Positions 11,929-44,065 of a stretch of 64,000 nucleotides of DNA are shown piece after piece (position 1 is the stretch's first letter; each line of letters begins with the position of its first letter). The DNA is taken from contig JAICWP010000009.1 in the NCBI GenBank assembly GCA_025934735.1, positions 71,640 through 135,639 on the forward strand, in the 5' to 3' direction. A model generated the notes under the pieces. That model saw only the letters and a list, made by a program, of their open reading frames with translations, did no database searches and had not been told where the DNA came from. The position numbers and the translations under genes were made by a program. Source of the stretch: Terriglobales bacterium. Its GTDB lineage: Bacteria; Acidobacteriota; Terriglobia; Terriglobales; Acidobacteriaceae.

Positions 11929-12417
11929 TCAGCTTTTTTTCTCTTCCTCGCTGTGGAGCTGTTGGGAAAGATAGTTCTGCAGACCCATTTCATCAATGGC
12001 GTGGAGCTGGCCTTCCAGCCAGTCAATGTGGTGTTCTTCGTCGGAAAGGATCTTGTTGAGCAGCTCGCGGGTGCCGTTGTCGCCGGCGGCCATGCAGAGC
12101 TTGATGCCCTCATTCAGTCGCTTGACCGCGTCATATTCCACCTGCAAGTCGTTTTGCAGCTGCTGCTTGACGTTTTCGCCGATGTTTATTTTGAAGTAAT
12201 CGCTCATGTTCGGGGTGCCGTCGAGCAGCAGGATGCGTTCAATGAGCACCTCGGCGTGGCCCATCTCCTCAATAGATTCAGCCTTGGTCAGCCCCGCCAG
12301 CCTGGAGTAACCCCAGTTCTCACACATTTCGGAGTGCAGGAAATACTGGTTGATGGCGGTGAGCTCCGCCTTGAGCACCTGTTGCAGCACCGCAATAATT
12401 TTGGGATCGCCTTTCAC
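11929..12417 (-). CDS. bfr: Bacterioferritin
   Basis: MKGDPKIIAVLQQVLKAELTAINQYFLHSEMCENWGY...EEMGHAEVLIERILLLDG...DEEHHIDWLE, which includes the di-iron and haem-Met ligand pattern of Bfr. Confidence 0.9.
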   Translation of the reverse strand: MKGDPKIIAVLQQVLKAELTAINQYFLHSEMCENWGYSRLAGLTKAESIEEMGHAEVLIERILLLDGTPNMSDYFKINIGENVKQQLQNDLQVEYDAVKRLNEGIKLCMAAGDNGTRELLNKILSDEEHHIDWLEGQLHAIDEMGLQNYLSQQLHSEEEKKS

Positions 12418-12509: not shown

Positions 12510-13331
12510 TTACGCCTTTACAGGCGCGAGGGGGTCTGCGGCTTCGATTTCAGCTTGCTTCTCCTGGCCAGCTGGAGCAGCGGGAGCAGTCGCCGGGATA
12601 GGCAGGGGCGGCACCGCGTCGGTGTTATCGAGCAGCCGATGATGCAGGCAGTAGAGCGCCAGCTCGAGGCGATCGGAAACTCCCAGCTTGTCGTAAACCT
12701 TGCGCAGATAGTTCTTCACGACCTGCTCAGTGGTGTTGACGCGTACCGCGATTTCCTTGTTCTTCATGCCCTGGGCCACGCAGGCCACAATCATCATTTC
12801 CTTTTGCGTGAGGTGCACCTTGGCGGCGGGGGCGATAGGGCGGGTAGCCTGGGTACGGTACGCGTGCAGCACCCAATTGACCGCCTGCTCATCCAGCCAA
12901 ATATCGCCTTTAGCCACCTTGTGAATGCAGGCCACCAGGGTCTCTGGCGGAATGGAGCGGTCCACAATGCCATAGGCGCCGCGGCGCAAGTATTCCAGAA
13001 CCTCTTCCTGGCTGGTGCCGGCGGTGAGCACCACCAGCTTGGAACTGGGGGCACGGCGCATCAGTTCGGAGATGGCTTCGGCGGGCTCAGCGGCGAGCGT
13101 GGTTTCGAACAGAATCACGTCGGCACTGAACTTGGCCAGGGCCGCGATGGCCTGGCCGTAACTTTCGGCTTGGCCGACCACGCGAATGTCGTCTTCCAGG
13201 GCAAAGATCTTGCGCAGCCCGACGCGGAAAATGGTTTGGCTGTCGGCCACGATCACGCGCGTGAACGCCTTGCCCTGGCTGTCCTGCGCGTTCTCGCTAC
13301 CGTCCTCAAGTTGGACCGAGCTGCTGGCCAT
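12510..13331 (-). CDS. LuxR/NarL-family response regulator with atypical (pseudo-)receiver domain
   Basis: C-terminal GerE HTH (LTQKEMMIVACVAQGMKNKEIAVRVNTTEQVVKNYLRKVYDKLGVSDRLELALY). The receiver aligns to NarL but reads VIVADSQ (DD becomes AD), DVILFETT (phospho-acceptor D becomes E) and GIVDRS (conserved K becomes R). Confidence 0.85.
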   Translation of the reverse strand: MASSSVQLEDGSENAQDSQGKAFTRVIVADSQTIFRVGLRKIFALEDDIRVVGQAESYGQAIAALAKFSADVILFETTLAAEPAEAISELMRRAPSSKLVVLTAGTSQEEVLEYLRRGAYGIVDRSIPPETLVACIHKVAKGDIWLDEQAVNWVLHAYRTQATRPIAPAAKVHLTQKEMMIVACVAQGMKNKEIAVRVNTTEQVVKNYLRKVYDKLGVSDRLELALYCLHHRLLDNTDAVPPLPIPATAPAAPAGQEKQAEIEAADPLAPVKA

Positions 13332-13336
13332 AATTC

Positions 13337-13654
13337 TTATTGCTTCCTCGTGGGCGAGGTTCCCACACGTTCCAAACCGTACTCGTCAATGACCACGCCT
13401 ACCCAGTAGGCTTGGTTTTCCTGAAAGCAGCGCACGGCGCGACCGCGGCAATTGACCATTACGCCGGCGGTGGTGCCCAGCACGGTGGCGGGCATGCAGA
13501 TGCTGAATTCCACGGCGGAGCCTATGGGAATCTCCGTATCAGTTTGAAAGAGGACGCCGTTGGCGGAGATGTTACGAGTCTGCCCGGGATGGTCGCCGCT
13601 GGGGCTGTGAAATTCCACCGGCAACTGCAGAGGGAAACGGGCCGCGCTCTGCAT
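13337..13654 (-). CDS. Stand-alone PilZ-domain protein (N-terminal RxxxR motif degenerate)
   Basis: Start set at ATG 13654 (MQSAARFPLQLPVEF...). N-I-S-A-N-G fits the D/NxSxxG motif. Paralogous to 37648..37980 (shared RFPLQLP, GS.VEF.I, GR.VR, VID.Y). The stop lies 5 nt before the start of the regulator gene. Confidence 0.7.
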   Translation of the reverse strand: MQSAARFPLQLPVEFHSPSGDHPGQTRNISANGVLFQTDTEIPIGSAVEFSICMPATVLGTTAGVMVNCRGRAVRCFQENQAYWVGVVIDEYGLERVGTSPTRKQ

Positions 13655-13877
13655 ATCGTGGTAGCGAGCCGAGTGTTGCGGCGCTTCCGCTACCGCCAAA
13701 TGTGGCCTGATGTCTTTGGACACGCTGTTTCTCCACGATGGAGGCAGCCGGGGGTAGCGCGCTCCAGCCCACACGTTGGATACGTAGGGGAGCTTACAAC
13801 GGCGTTGGGAGCGGGAAAAGTTACGAAAGTTATGGCCTGTTCGGGTAGGGTTGTGAGCGCGGGGGTTCACCCCCGCC

Positions 13878-36058: not shown

Positions 36059-36247
36059 TCTAAGCTGCGATGTGCGCTGCTGCACGCGAGAGTCTCCCGT
36101 TCTTCAGCAGCGCCCTCCAGCAACACGGCCCTGTGCTGGCCGTGGTACCCGCTTCTCTCCGGCAATCCAGACGCCTGCAAACACCGCGCGTCATATCCAC
36201 ATCCAATGTCAAGAGAAGGGAAAGGTTCTCGGCGGAAAGGAATAATC

Positions 36248-36778
36248 ATGGCTGAAACCAAACGTACGGAAGAGATGCTGCCCCCGGATGTGCCGGTTTT
36301 GGATCCGGAGCGGGAATTGCCGGAAGGTACGCCCAGTAACCCTCGCCTGAACGAAGCGGCAGAGGCCATCGGTGGCGCTCTGGGCACCGCGACGCGCCAG
36401 GTCCAGAACGCGCGTGAGCGGTTTACCGTGATCCGGGGCGGTGGAGAGGGTGGCCCCTCCAGCACTGAGCAGCTGAAGCAAACGGCTCGAGAGAAAGTTG
36501 AAGACGTCCAGGAGAAATTGGGAGAGCTTAAGGAGCGGGCCAGCGCCGCCGTCGAGCAGGCCAGGATCCAGGCCACGGCCAAGCTGGAGGAGGCCAGAGT
36601 TAAGGCTTCGCGACTGGCGCAGAGTGCCAGGGATTCGGCGACCGAACGCGCCCGCATGGTTCGCTGGCGCGCCGTGCGCCTTACCAACGAGCGGCCCCTG
36701 GCGGTCATAGGAGCTATCGGCGGAGCGGCTTTTTTGTTGGGTATCTTTTTGCGGCTGGGAAGGGGGAGACGTGGCTGA
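36248..36778 (+). CDS. ElaB/YqjD-like (DUF883) C-tail-anchored membrane protein
   Basis: ATG 36248. Coiled, charged body (EKVEDVQEKLGELKERASAAVEQARIQATAKLEEARVKA) and C-terminal anchor ERPLAVIGAIGGAAFLLGIFLRLGR. Confidence 0.6.
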   Translation: MAETKRTEEMLPPDVPVLDPERELPEGTPSNPRLNEAAEAIGGALGTATRQVQNARERFTVIRGGGEGGPSSTEQLKQTAREKVEDVQEKLGELKERASAAVEQARIQATAKLEEARVKASRLAQSARDSATERARMVRWRAVRLTNERPLAVIGAIGGAAFLLGIFLRLGRGRRG

Positions 36779-37196
36779 TCAGAGCGTCAATTTTAACGGG
36801 CGAAGCTTTGCCGGAGTCGTGAACGAGGTCAAGGATGAGCTGAAGGAATTCCTGCAGACCCGCATCACCATGTTGAAGGCGGAATTGGGCGAGAAAATGC
36901 GCACCTTCAAAACCGCCCTTCCGATGATAGCCACTGCTGTTGTGTTCTTAACAACAGCTTTCGTGCTGTTCACCCTCTGCCTGGTGGGGCTGATTTCTGT
37001 TGCGTTTTACGGCAATCCGTTCCGCTGGTTCTTGTCCTTCATCATTGTGGCCGTGCTGTACTCCATTGTGGGAGGCATGGCGGCGGCGTTTGGGCTGAAG
37101 GAACTGCGTGCCCAGGGGCTGATGCCCAAGAAAACCATCAAGGTGCTGAAAGAAGATCAAATCTGGCTGCAGCATGAAGCGAGGACCCAAGTATGA
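36771..37196 (+). CDS. Phage-holin-family / YqjE-like (DUF1469) membrane protein
   Basis: GTG start overlaps the upstream stop by 8 nt. N-terminal amphipathic helix plus two TM segments (ALPMIATAVVFLTTAFVLFTLCLVGLI; FLSFIIVAVLYSIVGGMAAAFGL). Confidence 0.6.
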   Translation: MADQSVNFNGRSFAGVVNEVKDELKEFLQTRITMLKAELGEKMRTFKTALPMIATAVVFLTTAFVLFTLCLVGLISVAFYGNPFRWFLSFIIVAVLYSIVGGMAAAFGLKELRAQGLMPKKTIKVLKEDQIWLQHEARTQV

Positions 37197-37411
37197 GCGC
37201 GAGCAACATTCCTACTGATCTGCTGGAACTGCAGGCGGCCGAGCAACGCCGCCGACTGCATAACTCCGTAGCCGAACTGCGCGTGCAAATGCGGGAGAAG
37301 CTGGACCTGCGGCGCAATGCCCGGCGCTACTTCTGGCCGGCTTCGGCGGTGGTCGGCGTGTGCGGACTGATGCTGGGTTACGGCTTCGGCGGCATCCTCA
37401 CGCGTGACTAA
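37193..37411 (+). CDS. YqjK-like small membrane protein
   Basis: ATGA overlap with the upstream stop. 72 aa: LELQAAEQRRRL... followed by one TM segment. Confidence 0.45.
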   Translation: MSASNIPTDLLELQAAEQRRRLHNSVAELRVQMREKLDLRRNARRYFWPASAVVGVCGLMLGYGFGGILTRD

Positions 37412-37647
37412 TTAACGAGTGCGTTGCGAGCACCGGATACCAAGTTCCGGGTCCGGAACTCCCGGGCTCGCCAATGGCTCGGAAGTGCTAGGTACTCCCT
37501 TAGTTACTAAAGTCATGGGAACCTACGTGCTTAAGCCTTGTGGTACATCTCTCCTTTATTCCCGGCTTCCGCCGTGGTATAAGGCTTGCCAGCACTAAAC
37601 TCACAACCCAGTAGGGCCTGTAAAAAGGCCAAACGGGAGGAGGTCCC

Positions 37648-37980
37648 GTGGCGGAAAACCGGACGGGGAAGCGTTTCCCTCTGCAACTGCCAATTCGTGT
37701 TCATAAAGCGGAAGCCGGCGCCGAGCATAAGGCGGTGACCGGTAACCTGAGCGCCGCCGGAGTTTACATCCAGGGAGATGCTTCGCTGGATGTCGGGTCC
37801 CAGGTAGAGTTTGAAATCACCTTGCCGCCGGAGGTAACCGGCAGCGATCACAACGTGACCATCCAGGGCCGCGGGCGGGTAGTACGCACCGACACCCCGC
37901 CGAAGGGCCGCAACGGAGACAAAAATTTTCGTGGGGTGGCCTGCGTGATTGATTCGTACGAGTTCGTTCGCAATACATAG
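37648..37980 (+). CDS. Stand-alone PilZ-domain protein (complete c-di-GMP motifs)
   Basis: GTG start after a GGGAGGAGG RBS. R-T-G-K-R fits RxxxR and N-L-S-A-A-G fits D/NxSxxG. Paralog of 13337..13654. Confidence 0.8.
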   Translation: MAENRTGKRFPLQLPIRVHKAEAGAEHKAVTGNLSAAGVYIQGDASLDVGSQVEFEITLPPEVTGSDHNVTIQGRGRVVRTDTPPKGRNGDKNFRGVACVIDSYEFVRNT

Positions 37981-38000
37981 CACAGCGGAGGCTGCGCGCC

Positions 38001-38672
38001 ATGGTGAAATTGATTCTGGCCGATAATCAGGCAATATTCCGGGCGGGGATCGCCAAAGTATTGGCGGTGGAGGACGACATGAGAATTGTCGCCCAAGCCC
38101 AGACTCTCGAGCAGTTGCTCATGGCGGTGGACAAGTTCCGCGCCGCCGTGGTTGTAGTAGCAAGCAACTTCCATCCTGACCTCACACCTATCGTGCAGGC
38201 CGCCGCTAAAGCCAAGACCCGTGTCGTCGTGCTGGCCGATACGGGCGAGACCTCCAGTCGCTTTATGAACACCGGCGCCCATGGTGTGGTTTACCGCAAC
38301 GTGACCGGTCCGGCGCTGGTGGAATGCGTACGCAAGACGGCCGCCGGCGAAAGCTGGGTGCAGGATTTAGCCGTGCCCACCGAGCTTACCGAGAACGATA
38401 TGGTGGGATTGCGGGTGCGCGATCGCCTGACCGCGAAGGAATTGCGCATCGTGGCGCTGATTGTGCAGGGCTATAAAAATAAGGAAATTGCCACCCAACT
38501 GGGCACCACCGAGCAGGTGATCAAGAATTATCTGCGCAATGTGTACGACAAAATCGGGGTGTCTGACCGGCTGGAGCTGGCGCTGTTCACTATTCACCAT
38601 CGCATACTGGCGGAAGCCGCCGCTGCCACCGCCGCAACCATGACCGCCGCACCCGCTCCCCAGGCAAACTGA
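38001..38672 (+). CDS. LuxR/NarL-family response regulator with atypical (pseudo-)receiver domain
   Basis: GerE HTH (LTAKELRIVALIVQGYKNKEIATQLGTTEQVIKNYLRNVYDKIGVSDRLELALF). The receiver reads LILADNQ, AAVVVVASNF (no acidic residue at the phospho-acceptor position) and GVVYRN (K becomes R). It starts 20 nt after the PilZ stop. Confidence 0.85.
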   Translation: MVKLILADNQAIFRAGIAKVLAVEDDMRIVAQAQTLEQLLMAVDKFRAAVVVVASNFHPDLTPIVQAAAKAKTRVVVLADTGETSSRFMNTGAHGVVYRNVTGPALVECVRKTAAGESWVQDLAVPTELTENDMVGLRVRDRLTAKELRIVALIVQGYKNKEIATQLGTTEQVIKNYLRNVYDKIGVSDRLELALFTIHHRILAEAAAATAATMTAAPAPQAN

Positions 38673-38690: not shown

Positions 38691-38720
38691 CGCCGCGCTT
38701 TGAGCGCGGCGTTTTTATTT
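38691..38720 (+). terminator. Rho-independent terminator after the PilZ/LuxR bicistron
   Basis: CGCCGCGC-TTTGA-GCGCGGCG followed by TTTTTATTT. Confidence 0.8.
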
Positions 38721-38802: not shown

Positions 38803-39174
38803 TCAGTCGGAGGCGGCCTTTTCGTCGCTTTTGAGCAGTTCGTTGACGATGGTGACCAGTTCTTCGGGATTGACGGGTTTTTCCAGGTAGAGGTCGGCCA
38901 ACGGTTCGGCGGCCTGAAAGGCTTCGGCCACATAACCGGACACCACCACTACGGGTAGGGCGGGCCGGTTTTTGGCGGCCTGCACTACAGCGCGGCCATT
39001 GGCGTCGCCCAGTCGCCAATCGGTGACCACGGCGTCGTAGTTGTTGTGGGAGAGCTTGGCGATGGCATCGTGGGCGGAAGTGGCGGCGGTGACGGTGTGG
39101 CCGGCGGACTCCAGGATGGCGCACTTCAGCGCCACCACATTCGGCTCATCGTCCACACAGAGAATTCTGGCCAT
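38803..39174 (-). CDS. Single-domain CheY-like response regulator (canonical receiver)
   Basis: ILCVDDEP, VVTDWRLGD (acceptor Asp), VVVSG and LEKP are all present. Confidence 0.85.
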   Translation of the reverse strand: MARILCVDDEPNVVALKCAILESAGHTVTAATSAHDAIAKLSHNNYDAVVTDWRLGDANGRAVVQAAKNRPALPVVVVSGYVAEAFQAAEPLADLYLEKPVNPEELVTIVNELLKSDEKAASD

Positions 39175-39391: not shown

Positions 39392-42010
39392 ATGAGCGGG
39401 AAGACGGTTTCCCACTATCGTATCGTCAGCCAGATTGGCGGCGGCGGGATGGGTGTGGTCTACGAGGCCGAGGACTTGAACCTGGGCCGCCGTGTAGCCC
39501 TCAAATTCCTTTCCCAAGAAGTAGCGGGCGATCCCGCCGTATTGGAGCGCTTTCAGCGTGAAGCCCGCGCAGCTTCCGCACTCGACCACCCCAACATCTG
39601 CACGGTTTACGATTTCGGGCAGCAGGACGGGCAGCCCTTTCTGGCCATGCAGTTGCTCGACGGGCAGACGCTCAAGCAGCGTATCGCCGGCAAGCCGATG
39701 GATCTGGATACCGTCCTGGAGCTTGCCATCCAGATCGCCGATGCCTTGGACGCCGCCCACGAGAAGGGCATCGTGCACCGCGACATCAAGCCAGCCAATA
39801 TCTTTGTCACCACCCGCGGGCAAGCCAAGATCCTGGACTTTGGTCTGGCCAAGTCTCTGCACCCCGTAATGGCGGCCCAGGCGACTGTCTCCGGCGCTGC
39901 GACGAGCAGCACAGCAGGCGATTCGCTGACCAGTTCCGGGGTCACACTGGGCACCGTCGCCTACATGTCGCCGGAGCAGATTCGCGGCAAGGAACTGGAC
40001 GCCCGCAGCGACCTTTTCTCCTTCGGTGCCCTCCTCTACGAGATGGTTACGGACACCGTGCCTTTTCGCGGCACAACTTCTGGCGCGGTTTTCGACTGCA
40101 TCCTGAACCGCGCTCCTACGGCAGCCGTCCGCCTCAATCCAGAGATCTCTCCTCAGCTGGCAGAGATCATTGAAAAGGCGCTGGAGAAGGATCGCGATCT
40201 GCGTTATCAGACCGCCGCAGAGATGCGCGCCGACCTGAAACGTCTGAAGCGAGACACCGACTCGGATCGCATACTGGCCACGGCTGACGCGCGGCCACCG
40301 CGGGCTAGTGATTATCGTTGGATCGTTTTGGCGGTAGCTGGCGCAGCAGCGCTGGCCGTGGCGGCGGTGTTCCTTCTGCGCGCTCCTCTTCCCGCGCCGC
40401 GCATTACTGGCTCGCGACAACTGACCAACGACGGCCTGCAGAAAATAATGCTGGTGGGCGACGGCAGCCGGCTTTACGTAACCGAGAGCTCCGGGACCAA
40501 TCAGACCATCGCGCAAGTTTCGGTAAACGGAGGCGAGACTGCGCCCCTCGATTTGCCCCTGAGCAATGCTATGGCCGGTGACATTTCGGCCGATGGGTCC
40601 GAGTTGCTGGTGGCGCAGTCGGCTCCAACGAACAGACCGCTTTGGTCACTGCCCCTTCCGGCCGGCGCACCTCGCCGTCTCGGTTCCATGACCCGCGGCG
40701 GCATCTGGGCGCCCAACGGGCAGCTTTTCTATCCGGTGGGACGGGACATCTATATTGCCGACCACGACGCCGGCAATCCGCGCAAGCTGGCCACGGCTCC
40801 CGGCATTGTGGTCAGCGCGGCTTATCCGCCCGACGGCAGCCGAATTCGCATGACCCTGGCCGATGAGACCACCAACAATTCCTCCCTGTGGGAGATGCGC
40901 GCAGACGGCAGCGGCATGCACGAACTGCTCCCCGGCTGGAATCGTCCCCCGCAGGAATGCTGCGGCAGATGGACGCCGGATGGCCGGTACTACGTTTTTC
41001 AGAGCACTCGCGAGGGAGCGACCAACCTGTGGGTAATGGCGGAGAGTTCGTCATTCTTGCACAGGAGCTCGCACCAGCCAATGCAGCTCACTGCGGGTCC
41101 ACTCTCCTTTTTCCGACCCCTGCCCAGCCGCGACGGCAAGAAGCTCTACGCGATTGGCATGCAACCGCGAGCCGAACTGGTGCGGTATGAAGCGAAATCA
41201 GGCGCCTTCCTGCCGTACCTGGGCGGCATCTCTGCCGGCGAAGTGGAGTTCTCCCGAGACGGCAAATGGATCACCTACGTCAGTTATCCCGAAGACGTCC
41301 TGTGGCGCAGCCGACCTGACGGCAGCGAGCGCCTGCCGTTGACCTTTCCGCCTATGCGAGCCGCACTTGCGCATTGGTCGCCGGATGGCCGCCAGATTGC
41401 CTTTTCCGGGATTACTCCGGGGCAGCCCTGGAAGGTTTTTCTCGTGCCCCGGGACGGCGGAGGTTCTACTGCGCTTACGAATGAAAATGAAGGAGAAACT
41501 GATCCCACCTGGTCAGCCGATGGCAAATACCTGGCGCTGGGCCACCAGCCCCGGGGCCAGCAGCATTTGTACATCGAGGCTGTCGAGTTGCAGACGCGCA
41601 AGGCCTTGCGCCTGCCCGGCTCGCAGGATGTATTTGGCCCGCGCTGGTCGCCGGATGGGCGCAGCATTGTTGCCATTTCCTATGACAATACCAAGCTAAT
41701 GCTCTTCGACACAGAGAAGCAGAGCTGGCGCCAGCTAGCCACCAACTTGGGATTGATTGGGTACATCACGTGGGCTGCCGATTCGCGCTTCCTTTATTTC
41801 GATACTTTGTTCAGCAGCCAACCGGCCTTCTACCAGTTGCGCATCAGCGACGGCGAAATGACCAAGATAGTGGACCTGAAATCGCTGCGTACTTTCCCCG
41901 GTCAGTTTGGCCCGGGCTCGTGGACGGGTCTGGCTCCCGACAAAACACCGCTATTCGTGCGCGACATCAGTACGCAAGAAATCTATGCGCTAGACTGGCA
42001 GCTGCCGTAA
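39392..42010 (+). CDS. Serine/threonine protein kinase fused to a TolB-like/WD40-like beta-propeller
   Basis: Hanks kinase motifs ([32 protein letters not shown]), a TM segment ([19 protein letters not shown]), then repeated ...SPDG..I.F... propeller blades. Confidence 0.9.
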
Positions 42011-42095: not shown

Positions 42096-43688
42096 CTACG
42101 TGGTTTTAATTCCTACCGACTTGGCCTGGGTGAATAGGTACAGGTAATCCGGGCCGCCCGACTTGGAATCCGTGCCCGACATATTGAACCCGCCGAAGGG
42201 GTGCGCCCCCACGATGGCACCCGTACATTTACGGTTGATGTACAGGTTCCCGACGTGGAACTCACGAATGGCGCGGTCCAGCTTGTCCTTGGAACTGGAG
42301 TAAACAGCGCCGGTGAGGCCGAATTCCGTGTCGTTGGCAATCTGCAGGGCGTCGTCGAAATTGCGCGACTTGATCACCGCCAGGACCGGGCCGAAAATTT
42401 CTTCCTGCTCGATGCGGTCGCCCGGTTTGACGTCGGCAATCACGGTGGGCTGCACGAACCAGCCCTCGCCGGCATTGCTGTCGCGCTTGCCGCCCGTCAG
42501 GACGCGCCCGCCTTGCTTCTGTCCCGCCTCAATATATTCGAGAATGGACTTCATCGAGCCCTCGTTGATCACCGGCCCCATTCCTGGGTTTTTCGCGGGA
42601 TCGCCCAAGGTGATCTTCTCCACGCGAGCTTTCAGGCGCTCCAGGAACTTGTCGTAGATGCGCTCATCAATGATGGCGCGCGAGCATGCCGAGCACTTCT
42701 GCCCGGAGAAGCCGAAAGCAGCCGCGGCCACGCCGTCCACCGCGGCATCGAGATTGGCATCCGCATCCACGATGATGGCGTCCTTGCCGCCCATCTCCAG
42801 GATGGTGCGCTTGATCCATACCTGGCCGGGCGCTTGTTCTGCGGCACGCTTGTTGATGTCTAGGCCCACTTCCCGCGAGCCGGTAAACGCGATAAAGCGC
42901 GTCTTGGGATGCGCCACCACGGCGTTACCGAAGCTGGCGCCCGCACCCGGGCAGAAATTGACCACGCCTTCCGGAAGGCCGGCTTCTTCCAGTGCTTCCA
43001 CGAATTTGGCTGCAATGGCGGGCGAGTCGCTGGAGGGCTTCAGGATCACGGTATTGCCGCACACAATGGAGGCCAACGTCATGCCGCCCATGATGGCGCT
43101 GGGAAAGTTCCACGGAGGAATTACCGCGCCCACGCCCAGCGGGATGTACATGAGCAAGTCGCGCTCGCCAGGCAGTTGTACCGGCGGTTCCGCCTTGGCC
43201 AGGCGCAGCGCTTCTCGCGGGTAGAATTCGCAGAAATCAATCAGCTCTGCGATGTCGGCATCGGCCTCGGCATAGTTCTTGCCGACTTCGAACACCATCC
43301 AGGCGGCGTACTCAAACTTGCGCTCGCGCAGGATCTCCGCCGTGCGGAACACGATGGCGGCCCGCTCTTCCACCGAGGTGCGGCTCCAGCTCTCAAACGC
43401 CTTGAGGGCCGCCTCCATCGCCGGTTCCACATGTTCCTTGCCGGCCTTCTGGAACAGCCCGACCAATTCCGAGGGCTTAGCCGGGTTGATGGATTTGATC
43501 TTGTCCTGAGTTTTTACCCGGCGACCGCCGATGATCAGGTCGTATTCGCGGCCGAGTTGGCCGCGCACTTCCTCCACTGCCGCTCGCATCTTGCGCGCGT
43601 TCTCTTCGCGCGTGAAGTCGGTCAGTGGCTCGTTGACGAAGGGCCCTTCATGAATCCGTGCCCGCGGCGGGGCTTGCATTGTCGCCAT
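42096..43688 (-). CDS. pruA: L-glutamate gamma-semialdehyde (1-pyrroline-5-carboxylate) dehydrogenase
   Basis: Start set at ATG 43688 (MATMQAPP...). Aldehyde-dehydrogenase blocks FTGS, EMGGKDA, GQKCSA and EEIFGPVLAV, plus the PruA/RocA-type end GAHPFGGFNMSGTDSKSGGPDYL. Confidence 0.9.
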   Translation of the reverse strand: MATMQAPPRARIHEGPFVNEPLTDFTREENARKMRAAVEEVRGQLGREYDLIIGGRRVKTQDKIKSINPAKPSELVGLFQKAGKEHVEPAMEAALKAFESWSRTSVEERAAIVFRTAEILRERKFEYAAWMVFEVGKNYAEADADIAELIDFCEFYPREALRLAKAEPPVQLPGERDLLMYIPLGVGAVIPPWNFPSAIMGGMTLASIVCGNTVILKPSSDSPAIAAKFVEALEEAGLPEGVVNFCPGAGASFGNAVVAHPKTRFIAFTGSREVGLDINKRAAEQAPGQVWIKRTILEMGGKDAIIVDADANLDAAVDGVAAAAFGFSGQKCSACSRAIIDERIYDKFLERLKARVEKITLGDPAKNPGMGPVINEGSMKSILEYIEAGQKQGGRVLTGGKRDSNAGEGWFVQPTVIADVKPGDRIEQEEIFGPVLAVIKSRNFDDALQIANDTEFGLTGAVYSSSKDKLDRAIREFHVGNLYINRKCTGAIVGAHPFGGFNMSGTDSKSGGPDYLYLFTQAKSVGIKTT

Positions 43689-44065
43689 GATTACGCCTCT
43701 CTTAAGTGTCCCGGTAGGACCCGGGAAACGGTAGGAAACCATCAATTTTACACCCCGGGGAGCGAGAACACGCCGAGGTGGGATCGTAGTCGGGTGCGCC
43801 GCGCCATCAGGGCAGCAAACCGGCTGGCGCGGGTCTGTCCGTGTAAGAGCAGGTCCCAGAACAACTTAGCCGTCCAACATCTTCTGCCCGGGAAGAATCC
43901 AATTTAACTGTAAACGGGGCATATCCAGTCCTAGAGAAGAGGGAAAAGCTTATGTGGGCAGTGGCATTGAGCGGTGTAGCTGTGTTGATCGCGGCAGCCG
44001 TAGCCGCGGCTCGAGAGGTCCACAACGAGTCTCGGCGGCCCTTCGGCTGCTGCTGAAAAAGAGCA

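Follow-up and report, generated by a model that had tools for sequence, protein, structure and literature searches.

Comparison with Described Systems

Regulators with pseudo-receiver domains are common, but their inputs are largely unknown (PMC4395418, PMC12632262), and a 2025 review says of their on/off control that it "remains a mystery" (PMC12632262). The locus described here lies in a 64-kb stretch of DNA (the window, to whose positions all coordinates refer) from a metagenome-assembled genome (MAG) of Terriglobales (Acidobacteriota). It comprises two adjacent genes, one for a stand-alone PilZ-domain protein (PilZ2) and one for a LuxR-type transcription factor with a pseudo-receiver (Reg2), together referred to as module 2. 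This locus is a concrete, testable candidate for a pseudo-receiver input: a PilZ adaptor genetically locked to a NarL-type regulator in an abundant soil order. Our proposal, to which we give about an even chance, is that PilZ2 is the cyclic diguanylate (c-di-GMP) input for the pseudo-receiver transcription factor Reg2, and that their operon is probably autoregulated. A paralogous pair, PilZ1 and Reg1 (module 1), is located on the opposite strand, about 24 kb from module 2.

The closest described system is TssZ (PA0012)–HinK of Pseudomonas aeruginosa, in which TssZ, a stand-alone PilZ protein, attaches to HinK, a member of the LuxR family, and blocks its binding to DNA, with c-di-GMP modulating the interaction; the nucleotide weakens TssZ–HinK binding, whereas it enhances the partner interactions of HapZ and MapZ (PMC10912698). 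As in module 2, a stand-alone PilZ protein with an RxxxR motif at residues 5–9 is combined with a LuxR-family protein carrying a GerE helix-turn-helix (HTH). There are, however, several differences. TssZ binds both c-di-GMP and HinK physically, whereas the present partnership is predicted from genomic data alone; TssZ is the nearest solved relative of PilZ2, but the homology is remote; and HinK is described as LasR-type (PMC10912698), whereas Reg2 has an N-terminal receiver fold. Judging from their locus numbers, and because a yeast two-hybrid screen was needed to find the partnership, tssZ and hinK are apparently neither adjacent nor co-transcribed, whereas the present genes form a strictly conserved operon and a duplicated system.

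In HapZ (PA2799)–SagS of P. aeruginosa, similar to what is proposed here, a stand-alone PilZ adaptor feeds c-di-GMP into a two-component-type pathway (PMC10912698). The SagS receiver belongs to a hybrid histidine kinase, is phosphorylatable and has a phosphorelay as its output, whereas the Reg2 receiver is dead, has no conserved kinase nearby, and has the HTH on the same protein. In the work of Xu et al. in 2016, HapZ reportedly docks on the SagS receiver (REC) domain in a c-di-GMP-dependent manner.

Regulators of the VpsT/CsgD type share with Reg2 the NarL/FixJ-type fold, a phosphorylation-free receiver and a GerE HTH, and VpsT couples c-di-GMP to transcription; unlike Reg2, it binds c-di-GMP itself, through a W[F/L/M][T/S]R motif that occurs in none of the 160 regulators of the present sample. 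We know of no PilZ partner gene for VpsT. The pseudo-receivers of BldM/WhiI and SecR (PMC4395418, PMC12632262) are similar to that of Reg2 in that the fold is kept, the catalytic residues are replaced, and the proteins are orphan and phosphorylation-independent; the text of the pseudo-receiver review (PMC12632262) does not mention PilZ, and no PilZ partner, such as the one proposed here, is described there. In MrkH, as well as in the PilZ–HTH and REC–PilZ fusion clusters (PMC5055493; bioRxiv 10.1101/2020.02.11.943704), a PilZ sensor is likewise coupled to DNA binding or to a receiver, but in a single chain and in other architectures, whereas the PilZ subfamily considered here is stand-alone. 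A literature search for PilZ together with LuxR, NarL, pseudo-receiver or orphan response regulator returned no description of this pairing, and no such operon is found among the clusters of the PilZ sequence-similarity-network preprint (bioRxiv 10.1101/2020.02.11.943704). The search also found no relevant literature on PilZ/c-di-GMP signalling in Acidobacteria.

The PilZ2–Reg2 Gene Pair

The PilZ2 gene (37648–37980, plus strand) begins with a GTG codon, preceded by a ribosome-binding site (RBS) that reads GGGAGGAGG (37635–37643, plus strand), and encodes a stand-alone PilZ-domain protein of 110 aa, a candidate c-di-GMP receptor or adaptor. The PilZ2 stop codon is followed, after a spacer of 20 nt that holds the RBS GGAGG of the regulator (37987–37991, plus strand), by the gene for Reg2 (38001–38672, plus strand). 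The latter is a NarL/FixJ-LuxR-type transcription factor of 223 aa, with the pseudo-receiver at residues 1–~120 and the GerE HTH at residues ~140–200. An earlier sequence-only reading of this DNA had described a 110-aa PilZ protein with RTGKR and NLSAAG motifs and a LuxR regulator 20 nt further on, and both genes are present at the positions it gave, according to the table of open reading frames (ORFs) and Pfam.

For comparison with orthologous loci, a scan covering one genome per GTDB species was used, which yielded at least 588 relatives of the module 2 regulator; in all, known homologs exceed 2,000 for PilZ and 7,000 for the regulator. The best 80 loci, with regulator identities of 79–85%, were analysed; their labels are mostly those of Terriglobales, Acidobacteriaceae and Sulfotelmatobacter MAGs, and the few labelled as other phyla were taken as mis-binned contigs. 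For module 1, a metagenome scan with the module 1 regulator provided 80 loci (56–98% identity). All of the sampled genomes represent one order, and linked genes within it share history regardless. In assembly GCA_025933835.1, both the proteins and the gene order are identical to those of the window locus.

PilZ2 matches the Pfam PilZ family (PF07238) with an E-value of 2.8e-7 and 31.3 bits, which is above the curated cut-off of 22.5 bits. Its RxxxR motif (RTGKR, residues 5–9) is kept in 77/79 orthologs. In the [D/N]xSxxG motif (NLSAAG, residues 33–38), no ortholog departs from the S, A, A and G (79/79 for each), and 78/79 have N or D at the first position. Judged by this pattern, the c-di-GMP motifs of PilZ2 are under strong purifying selection. 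The family profile of PilZ2, which matched 465 clusters at E ≤ 1e-10 among 1.84 billion cluster representatives, has its best PDB match in 8u0i (E-value, 0.007), the structure of PA0012/TssZ of P. aeruginosa with c-di-GMP. In the profile alignment, RQYPR of 8u0i is found opposite RTGKR, and DLSDTG opposite NLSAAG. With respect to the six-stranded beta-barrel of canonical PilZ domains, the AlphaFold 2 (AF2) model of PilZ2 is beta-rich and of low confidence (predicted local distance difference test score, pLDDT, 64), and a Foldseek search of the PDB with this model gave PilZ domains as the top matches, although with E-values ≥ 0.006 and a template modelling score (TM) of about 0.5. Among the Foldseek matches listed, 8u0i has the highest identity to PilZ2 (27%). 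The 150 closest representatives of the PilZ2 family are all 62–180 aa long, and thus the subfamily is a stand-alone one. Longer regulator homologs (P0044, P0048, P0062 and P0096) were also considered as PilZ fusions and rejected, as their additional length represents read-through or unrelated extensions.

The only Pfam match of Reg2 is GerE (E-value, 2.6e-13), and the NarL-type models of NCBIfam match it over the full length (4.7e-19). Since the latter span Reg2 from end to end, a diverged receiver precedes the HTH. Based on HMMER alignment of Reg2 to NarL (1a04), by which the receiver residues were assigned, D13, D14, D59, S87 and K109 of NarL correspond to A7, D8, A54, A79 and R99 of Reg2, and these five residues are invariant in 79/79 orthologs. 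The acceptor position at the end of beta3 is therefore Ala54 (D59 in NarL) and not the phospho-acceptor Asp, while A7–D8, A79 and R99 stand in place of the acidic pair, the Ser/Thr and the Lys of a phosphorylation-dependent NarL/FixJ regulator. The same alignment upholds the earlier interpretation of the strings LILADNQ, AAVVVVASNF and GVVYRN, namely, that the acceptor position has no acid and that Lys is replaced by Arg. The AF2 model of Reg2 (pLDDT 82) contains a complete (beta-alpha)5 receiver fold and a four-helix HTH, and its Foldseek matches include VraR, LiaR, EvgA, DesR, NarL, RcsB and VpsT. On these predictions, the Reg2 receiver is a conserved pseudo-receiver, which has kept its fold and cannot be phosphorylated.

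None of the 160 regulators contains the VpsT motif as defined in PMC10333796, which is located at the base of the helix following the receiver, a test that consists of motif absence alone; Reg2 has W119-V-Q-D and Reg1 has W-L-D/E. Trp119 of Reg2, which follows alpha5, is invariant among the orthologs, and so is the W-V-Q that it begins. As Reg2 is devoid of the VpsT-type c-di-GMP motif, the PilZ protein is more likely to be the sensor. HisKA_3 kinases were detected within about 6 kb of the regulator in 3/160 loci only, as weak matches on the opposite strand, and the 64-kb window contains no histidine kinase match, a result that applies to nearby genes only and is compatible with a distant kinase. 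With the receiver fold kept, the catalytic residues replaced and a kinase rarely nearby, an input other than phosphorylation is needed.

Conservation and Co-Duplication of the Pair

Of the 80 module 2 loci, 79 have an ortholog of PilZ2 (58–71% identity) immediately before the regulator gene and on its strand, and the contig of the 80th ends 76 nt before the regulator. Similarly, a full PilZ1-type gene directly precedes the regulator in 78/80 module 1 loci; the other two lie at contig ends, one of them with a fragment of the PilZ gene. The junction of the PilZ and regulator genes is thus unbroken in about 157 loci, and the flanking genes vary. These observations support the view that the pair is a conserved functional unit. 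The sequence-only reading had argued from the duplication of the pair that the linkage is functional, and the loci sampled here agree with it, all of the exceptions being truncations at contig ends.

Both the PilZ proteins and the regulators split into the same two clades. The mean distance between the two groups is 0.58 for PilZ and 0.59 for the regulators, and the distances within groups are 0.23 and 0.28 for PilZ, and 0.09 and 0.31 for the regulators. Pairwise distances of PilZ and regulator proteins are correlated in module 2 (Mantel r 0.69) as well as in module 1 (Mantel r 0.90; P = 0.001). The shared clades, together with the co-variation of the distances, suggest that the whole pair was anciently duplicated as a unit and co-inherited thereafter, the opposite of an independent juxtaposition of the two genes, which had been named as the outcome that would speak against co-duplication. 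For a correlation of this type, the Mantel result shows co-inheritance, and not physical co-adaptation. No third copy of the pair is present elsewhere in the 64-kb window.

In a distant branch of this PilZ subfamily (relatives of P0365, about 35% identical to PilZ2), a LuxR gene is absent nearby in 4/5 distinct neighbourhoods. The exception, L166/L167 (L166:263-3333, JGI metagenome 3300052992), comes from an unrelated metagenome lineage and contains, in this order, a HisKA_3 kinase, a canonical REC–GerE regulator, a 33-aa ORF and a PilZ gene. The PilZ protein of L166 is 35% identical to PilZ2 and belongs to the same subfamily. The regulator is 34% identical to Reg2, contains all of the phosphorylation residues, and has the tail ...GVSDRLELALY.IHHRL in common with it. 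This arrangement may be an ancestral or evolutionary intermediate, or it may be a coincidence.

Operon Structure and Candidate Regulatory Elements

No plus-strand terminator is located between the genes of PilZ2 and Reg2, the latter of which has its own RBS, and across orthologs the gap from the PilZ stop codon to the regulator start is mostly 12–50 nt. The sequence GAGGAGG is found at about −12 of the PilZ gene in 62/78 orthologs. Downstream of the Reg2 gene, an intrinsic terminator of the bicistron (38691–38720, plus strand) consists of a GC-rich stem of 9 pairs (38691–38711), followed by the T-run TTTTTATTT. Its folding energy (dG) of −31 kcal/mol (z = −5.3) is in keeping with the strong terminator noticed earlier at this place.

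The putative promoter of the operon includes an extended −10 element, TGGTATAAG (37575–37583, plus strand), and a good −35 hexamer is absent; it is because of the weak −35 that a strict sigma-70 scan missed the element. In the upstream regions of module 2 orthologs, CGTGATATAA is found in 62/78 and TGATATAA in 69/78, and further conserved blocks lie farther upstream. The leader has no matches to any Rfam family, c-di-GMP riboswitches included, and the sub-threshold matches result from the terminator hairpin.

Upstream of the promoter, a 17-nt element, CCATGACTTTAGTAACT (37502–37518, minus strand), was identified as a candidate operator. It reads AGTTACTAAAGTCATGG on the plus strand and forms an imperfect palindrome, GTTAC-N4-GTCAT. 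The module 1 copy of the element, CCATAACTTTCGTAACT (13819–13835, minus strand), has the orientation of the module 1 genes and is followed, about 20 nt further on, by a −10-like TGTAAG. In upstream regions of module 1 orthologs, GTAACTTT is present in 68/68 unique sequences, with the consensus GTTCCATGACTTCGGTAACTTT. The core CCATGACTTnnGTAACT of this consensus, which derives from module 1 orthologs in other organisms, was used as the query in the window with up to 2 mismatches allowed. Two matches only were obtained, one at 37502–37518 (0 mismatches) and the other at 13819–13835 (1 mismatch); 0.04 matches are expected in the window, and two matches were seen in no shuffle. The suggestion made earlier that an operator motif might be shared by the regions upstream of both modules has thus found an answer in CCATGACTTnnGTAACT.

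Palindromes of the RTTAC-N4-GTAAY type, such as ATTAC-GAAG-GTAAT and GTTAC-GATG-GTAAC, occur at the equivalent position in 21/78 promoters of module 2 orthologs, against a background of 0.02 per 281 nt. Many module 2 orthologs have GTTAACTAACGGGTTATC, with another spacing of the half-sites, instead of the exact palindrome, and a 9-bp direct repeat that overlaps the −35 region is an equally good reading of the module 1 element. A model with a single clean palindromic operator was dropped, given that the exact RT[TG]AC-N4-GT[AC]AY is found in 60/68 module 1 promoters and in 21/78 module 2 promoters. Because of the variable spacing, orientation and distance, and because of the −35 overlap in module 1, the shared element is reported here with no binding-site model attached. 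The HTHs of Reg1 and Reg2 are nearly identical, which makes a common operator, and hence auto- and cross-regulation, a reasonable expectation. Thus, it is probable that the Reg2 operon is autoregulated through the predicted GTTAC/GTAAC-type element, and, likewise, that it is cross-regulated with the paralogous module 1 through the same predicted element.

A second conserved block, GGGGGAAYCTAGTTCCTACC, was observed upstream of the orthologous promoters (L001–L080), about 20 nt upstream of the palindrome. It is roughly palindromic (GGAAC-CTAG-GTTCC). Its counterpart in the window is GGAAGTGCTAGGTACTCCC (37481–37499), and a second partial copy, GGGAACCTACGTGC, is found at 37517–37530. From the partial copy, it seems that ~31 nt were inserted or duplicated in this lineage, separating the element from the −35 region.

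The Paralogous Module 1

Module 1 consists of PilZ1 (13337–13723, minus strand; probably 128 aa), which is 37% identical to PilZ2 and has the N-terminal motif QSAAR, and of the pseudo-receiver LuxR regulator Reg1 (12510–13331, minus strand), which shares 41% identity and a near-identical HTH with Reg2. All of the peptide strings that had been quoted as common to the two PilZ proteins and to the two regulators are indeed present in them. Of the claim that the layouts of the two modules match, the order of the gene pair stood, but module 1 is not an equivalent copy, having a degenerate RxxxR motif and a Glu at the acceptor position. In PilZ1, the first Arg of RxxxR is replaced by Q (Q-S-A-x-R) in 76/76 orthologs, and NISANG is kept. 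With RxxxR degenerate in PilZ1, the dependence on c-di-GMP cannot be alike in both modules.

Reg1 carries Glu at the acceptor position and Arg in place of Lys, each in 79/79 orthologs. At an acceptor position, Glu is classically phosphomimetic, and Ala mimics the unphosphorylated state. The invariant Glu of Reg1 and the invariant Ala of Reg2 suggest that the two paralogs may be locked in opposite conformations.

The start of PilZ1 appears to have been placed at an internal Met in the sequence-only reading, which has to be corrected: the ORF starts upstream of this codon, probably at GTG 13723. The conserved frame extends past the internal Met on its upstream side, where a basic R-x-R-Y-x-D precedes MQSAxR (in one ortholog, a stop codon is found just upstream), and GGAG is located 8 nt before the GTG. 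The 191-aa PilZ1 ORF of the mechanical list was rejected as an overcall that reads through the promoter element. Directly downstream of Reg1, a 162-aa ORF (11929–12417, minus strand) appears bacterioferritin-like (MKGDPKIIAVLQQVLKAELTAINQYFLH...), and its co-transcription with module 1 is possible.

Proposed Mechanism and Alternative Explanations

The locus resembles the TssZ–HinK type in combining a stand-alone PilZ protein that has c-di-GMP motifs with a GerE-HTH partner. An invariant PilZ companion with conserved motifs, a dead receiver, no conserved kinase nearby and signals of co-transcription together make PilZ2 as the sensor subunit of Reg2 the most economical explanation. In the mechanism that we propose, PilZ2 would bind c-di-GMP through its N-terminal RxxxR and [D/N]xSxxG motifs and would contact Reg2, most likely on the pseudo-receiver. 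In place of phosphorylation, this contact would control whether Reg2 dimerises or binds DNA, so that Reg2 output would track the cellular c-di-GMP level. The effect could have either sign, with c-di-GMP strengthening or weakening the binding, and the operon would feed back on itself via the upstream candidate operator.

Several points weigh against this proposal. Both c-di-GMP binding by PilZ2 and its contact with Reg2 are inferred, and the structure model of PilZ2 is of low confidence (pLDDT 64). PilZ1 has no first Arg of RxxxR in any of its orthologs. No fusion of PilZ with the regulator was found among the 150 closest PilZ cluster representatives. As a single order was sampled, phylogenetic inertia could account for some of the synteny, and the unrelated contexts of distant PilZ relatives indicate that the linkage is specific to these orthogroups. 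In addition, the candidate operator differs between the modules in orientation and distance, and the exact palindrome is limited to 21/78 module 2 orthologs.

The two proteins might be co-expressed and still function independently, with PilZ2 relaying c-di-GMP to a machine for motility, secretion or polysaccharide, and the regulator controlled by another ligand or by its abundance. Most characterised stand-alone PilZ adaptors do act on non-transcriptional targets (MapZ and HapZ in PMC10912698; FlgZ, MotI and YcgR in PMC12564702), some pseudo-receiver regulators, e.g., BldM, need no partner signal (PMC12632262), and neither the lack of fusions among the 150 closest representatives nor the distant PilZ relatives that are not linked to LuxR genes would be surprising. 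However, in about 157 loci the flanks vary but the junction is never interrupted, the pair was duplicated as a unit and its linkage was kept in both copies over about 60% sequence divergence, and no other conserved candidate target gene is found in the neighbourhood; independent functions are therefore considered unlikely. Alternatively, PilZ could be a structural partner or anti-activator that acts independently of c-di-GMP, like the non-binding proteins of the PilZ/FimX type, the ratio of PilZ to regulator setting the activity. Such a role would suit PilZ1, whose RxxxR begins with Q instead of Arg in 76/76 orthologs, and TssZ binds HinK without c-di-GMP, as does its R5A/R9A mutant (PMC10912698). 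The module 2 motifs, however, are near invariant and line up with their counterparts in a crystal structure that contains c-di-GMP, which is hard to explain without ligand binding, and we regard this alternative as quite improbable.

The sensor could also be the regulator itself, its pseudo-receiver binding c-di-GMP or another ligand in the manner of VpsT or the ShkA pseudo-receiver, with PilZ as a regulated product or a nucleotide buffer. VpsT, a c-di-GMP-binding LuxR/CsgD-type pseudo-receiver regulator, is indeed among the structural and sequence matches of Reg2, the alpha4-beta5-alpha5 face of pseudo-receivers can serve as a binding surface for c-di-GMP (PMC12632262), and Reg2 has the invariant Trp119 after alpha5. 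Nevertheless, none of the 160 regulators has W[F/L/M][T/S]R, and the obligatory PilZ partner is left unexplained, so that such sensing is very improbable. Phosphorylation of Reg2 at another residue by the neighbouring Ser/Thr kinase, or its control via CheY, as parts of an integrated signalling island, is hardly credible. Although CheY and the Ser/Thr kinase with a PD40 propeller lie within 1 kb in this genome, a CheY match was obtained in 1/80 orthologous loci (weak) and a match to the kinase query in 9/80 (mostly weak and scattered). Both genes occupy a variable slot before a conserved aldehyde dehydrogenase gene, and they are separate transcription units beyond the strong terminator.

A more far-reaching version of the proposal is that PilZ took over the role of the histidine kinase in Terriglobales. 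In such a "kinase-less two-component system", c-di-GMP-loaded PilZ would dock on the dead receiver and thereby switch the NarL-type transcription factor, and the two ancient paralogous modules would use one operator as a cross-regulating pair. We regard this version as less likely than not. Module 2 could then combine a ligand-competent PilZ with an Ala ("off-like") receiver, and module 1 an RxxxR-degenerate PilZ with a Glu ("phosphomimetic") receiver. The modules offer two natural variants for dissection of the mechanism, as they differ in the acceptor residue (Ala in Reg2, Glu in Reg1) and in RxxxR (intact in PilZ2, degenerate in PilZ1). If PilZ2 does act as the input of Reg2, a new route from c-di-GMP to transcription would be established, PilZ2 would be the second PilZ protein known to target a LuxR-family transcription factor, and c-di-GMP signalling in Acidobacteria could be approached from this pair. 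To our knowledge, it would also be the first PilZ–LuxR-family pair encoded as an operon. If the kinase-less two-component version is true, a pseudo-receiver response regulator would for the first time have a defined protein as its input.

Neighbouring Genes

The CheY gene (38803–39174, minus strand) converges on the bicistron, and its product matches Response_reg (E-value, 5.8e-19) and has the canonical DD/D/S/K residues. Divergent from it is the gene for a membrane Ser/Thr kinase with Pkinase and PD40 repeats (39392–42010, plus strand). Both genes are as described in the sequence-only reading, whose argument from a signalling-dense locus does not hold, as the two are missing in almost every orthologous locus. 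They fill a variable slot between the regulator terminator and the convergent aldehyde dehydrogenase gene (42096–43745), a conserved downstream landmark that is found in 56/80 module 2 loci, 79–5347 nt from the regulator. In other Terriglobales genomes, the slot contains different genes or none. CheY and the kinase were thus rejected as parts of the system; with the slot variable, the density of signalling genes is incidental and provides no evidence for function or for alternative phosphorylation. A sigma-70-like promoter, TTGACA-18-GAGAAT (39268–39239, minus strand), precedes the CheY gene.

No GGDEF or EAL genes were found in the window by motif search, for which 64 kb is too small to be informative. 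The PilZ promoter is preceded, in this lineage alone, by three small genes with overlapping stop and start codons (36206–37411, plus strand), which encode proteins of 190 aa, 141 aa and 72 aa. The 141-aa product is a membrane protein of PF07332 (Phage_holin_3_6), and the trio presumably resembles the yqjD-yqjE-yqjK stress-protein cluster of Escherichia coli.

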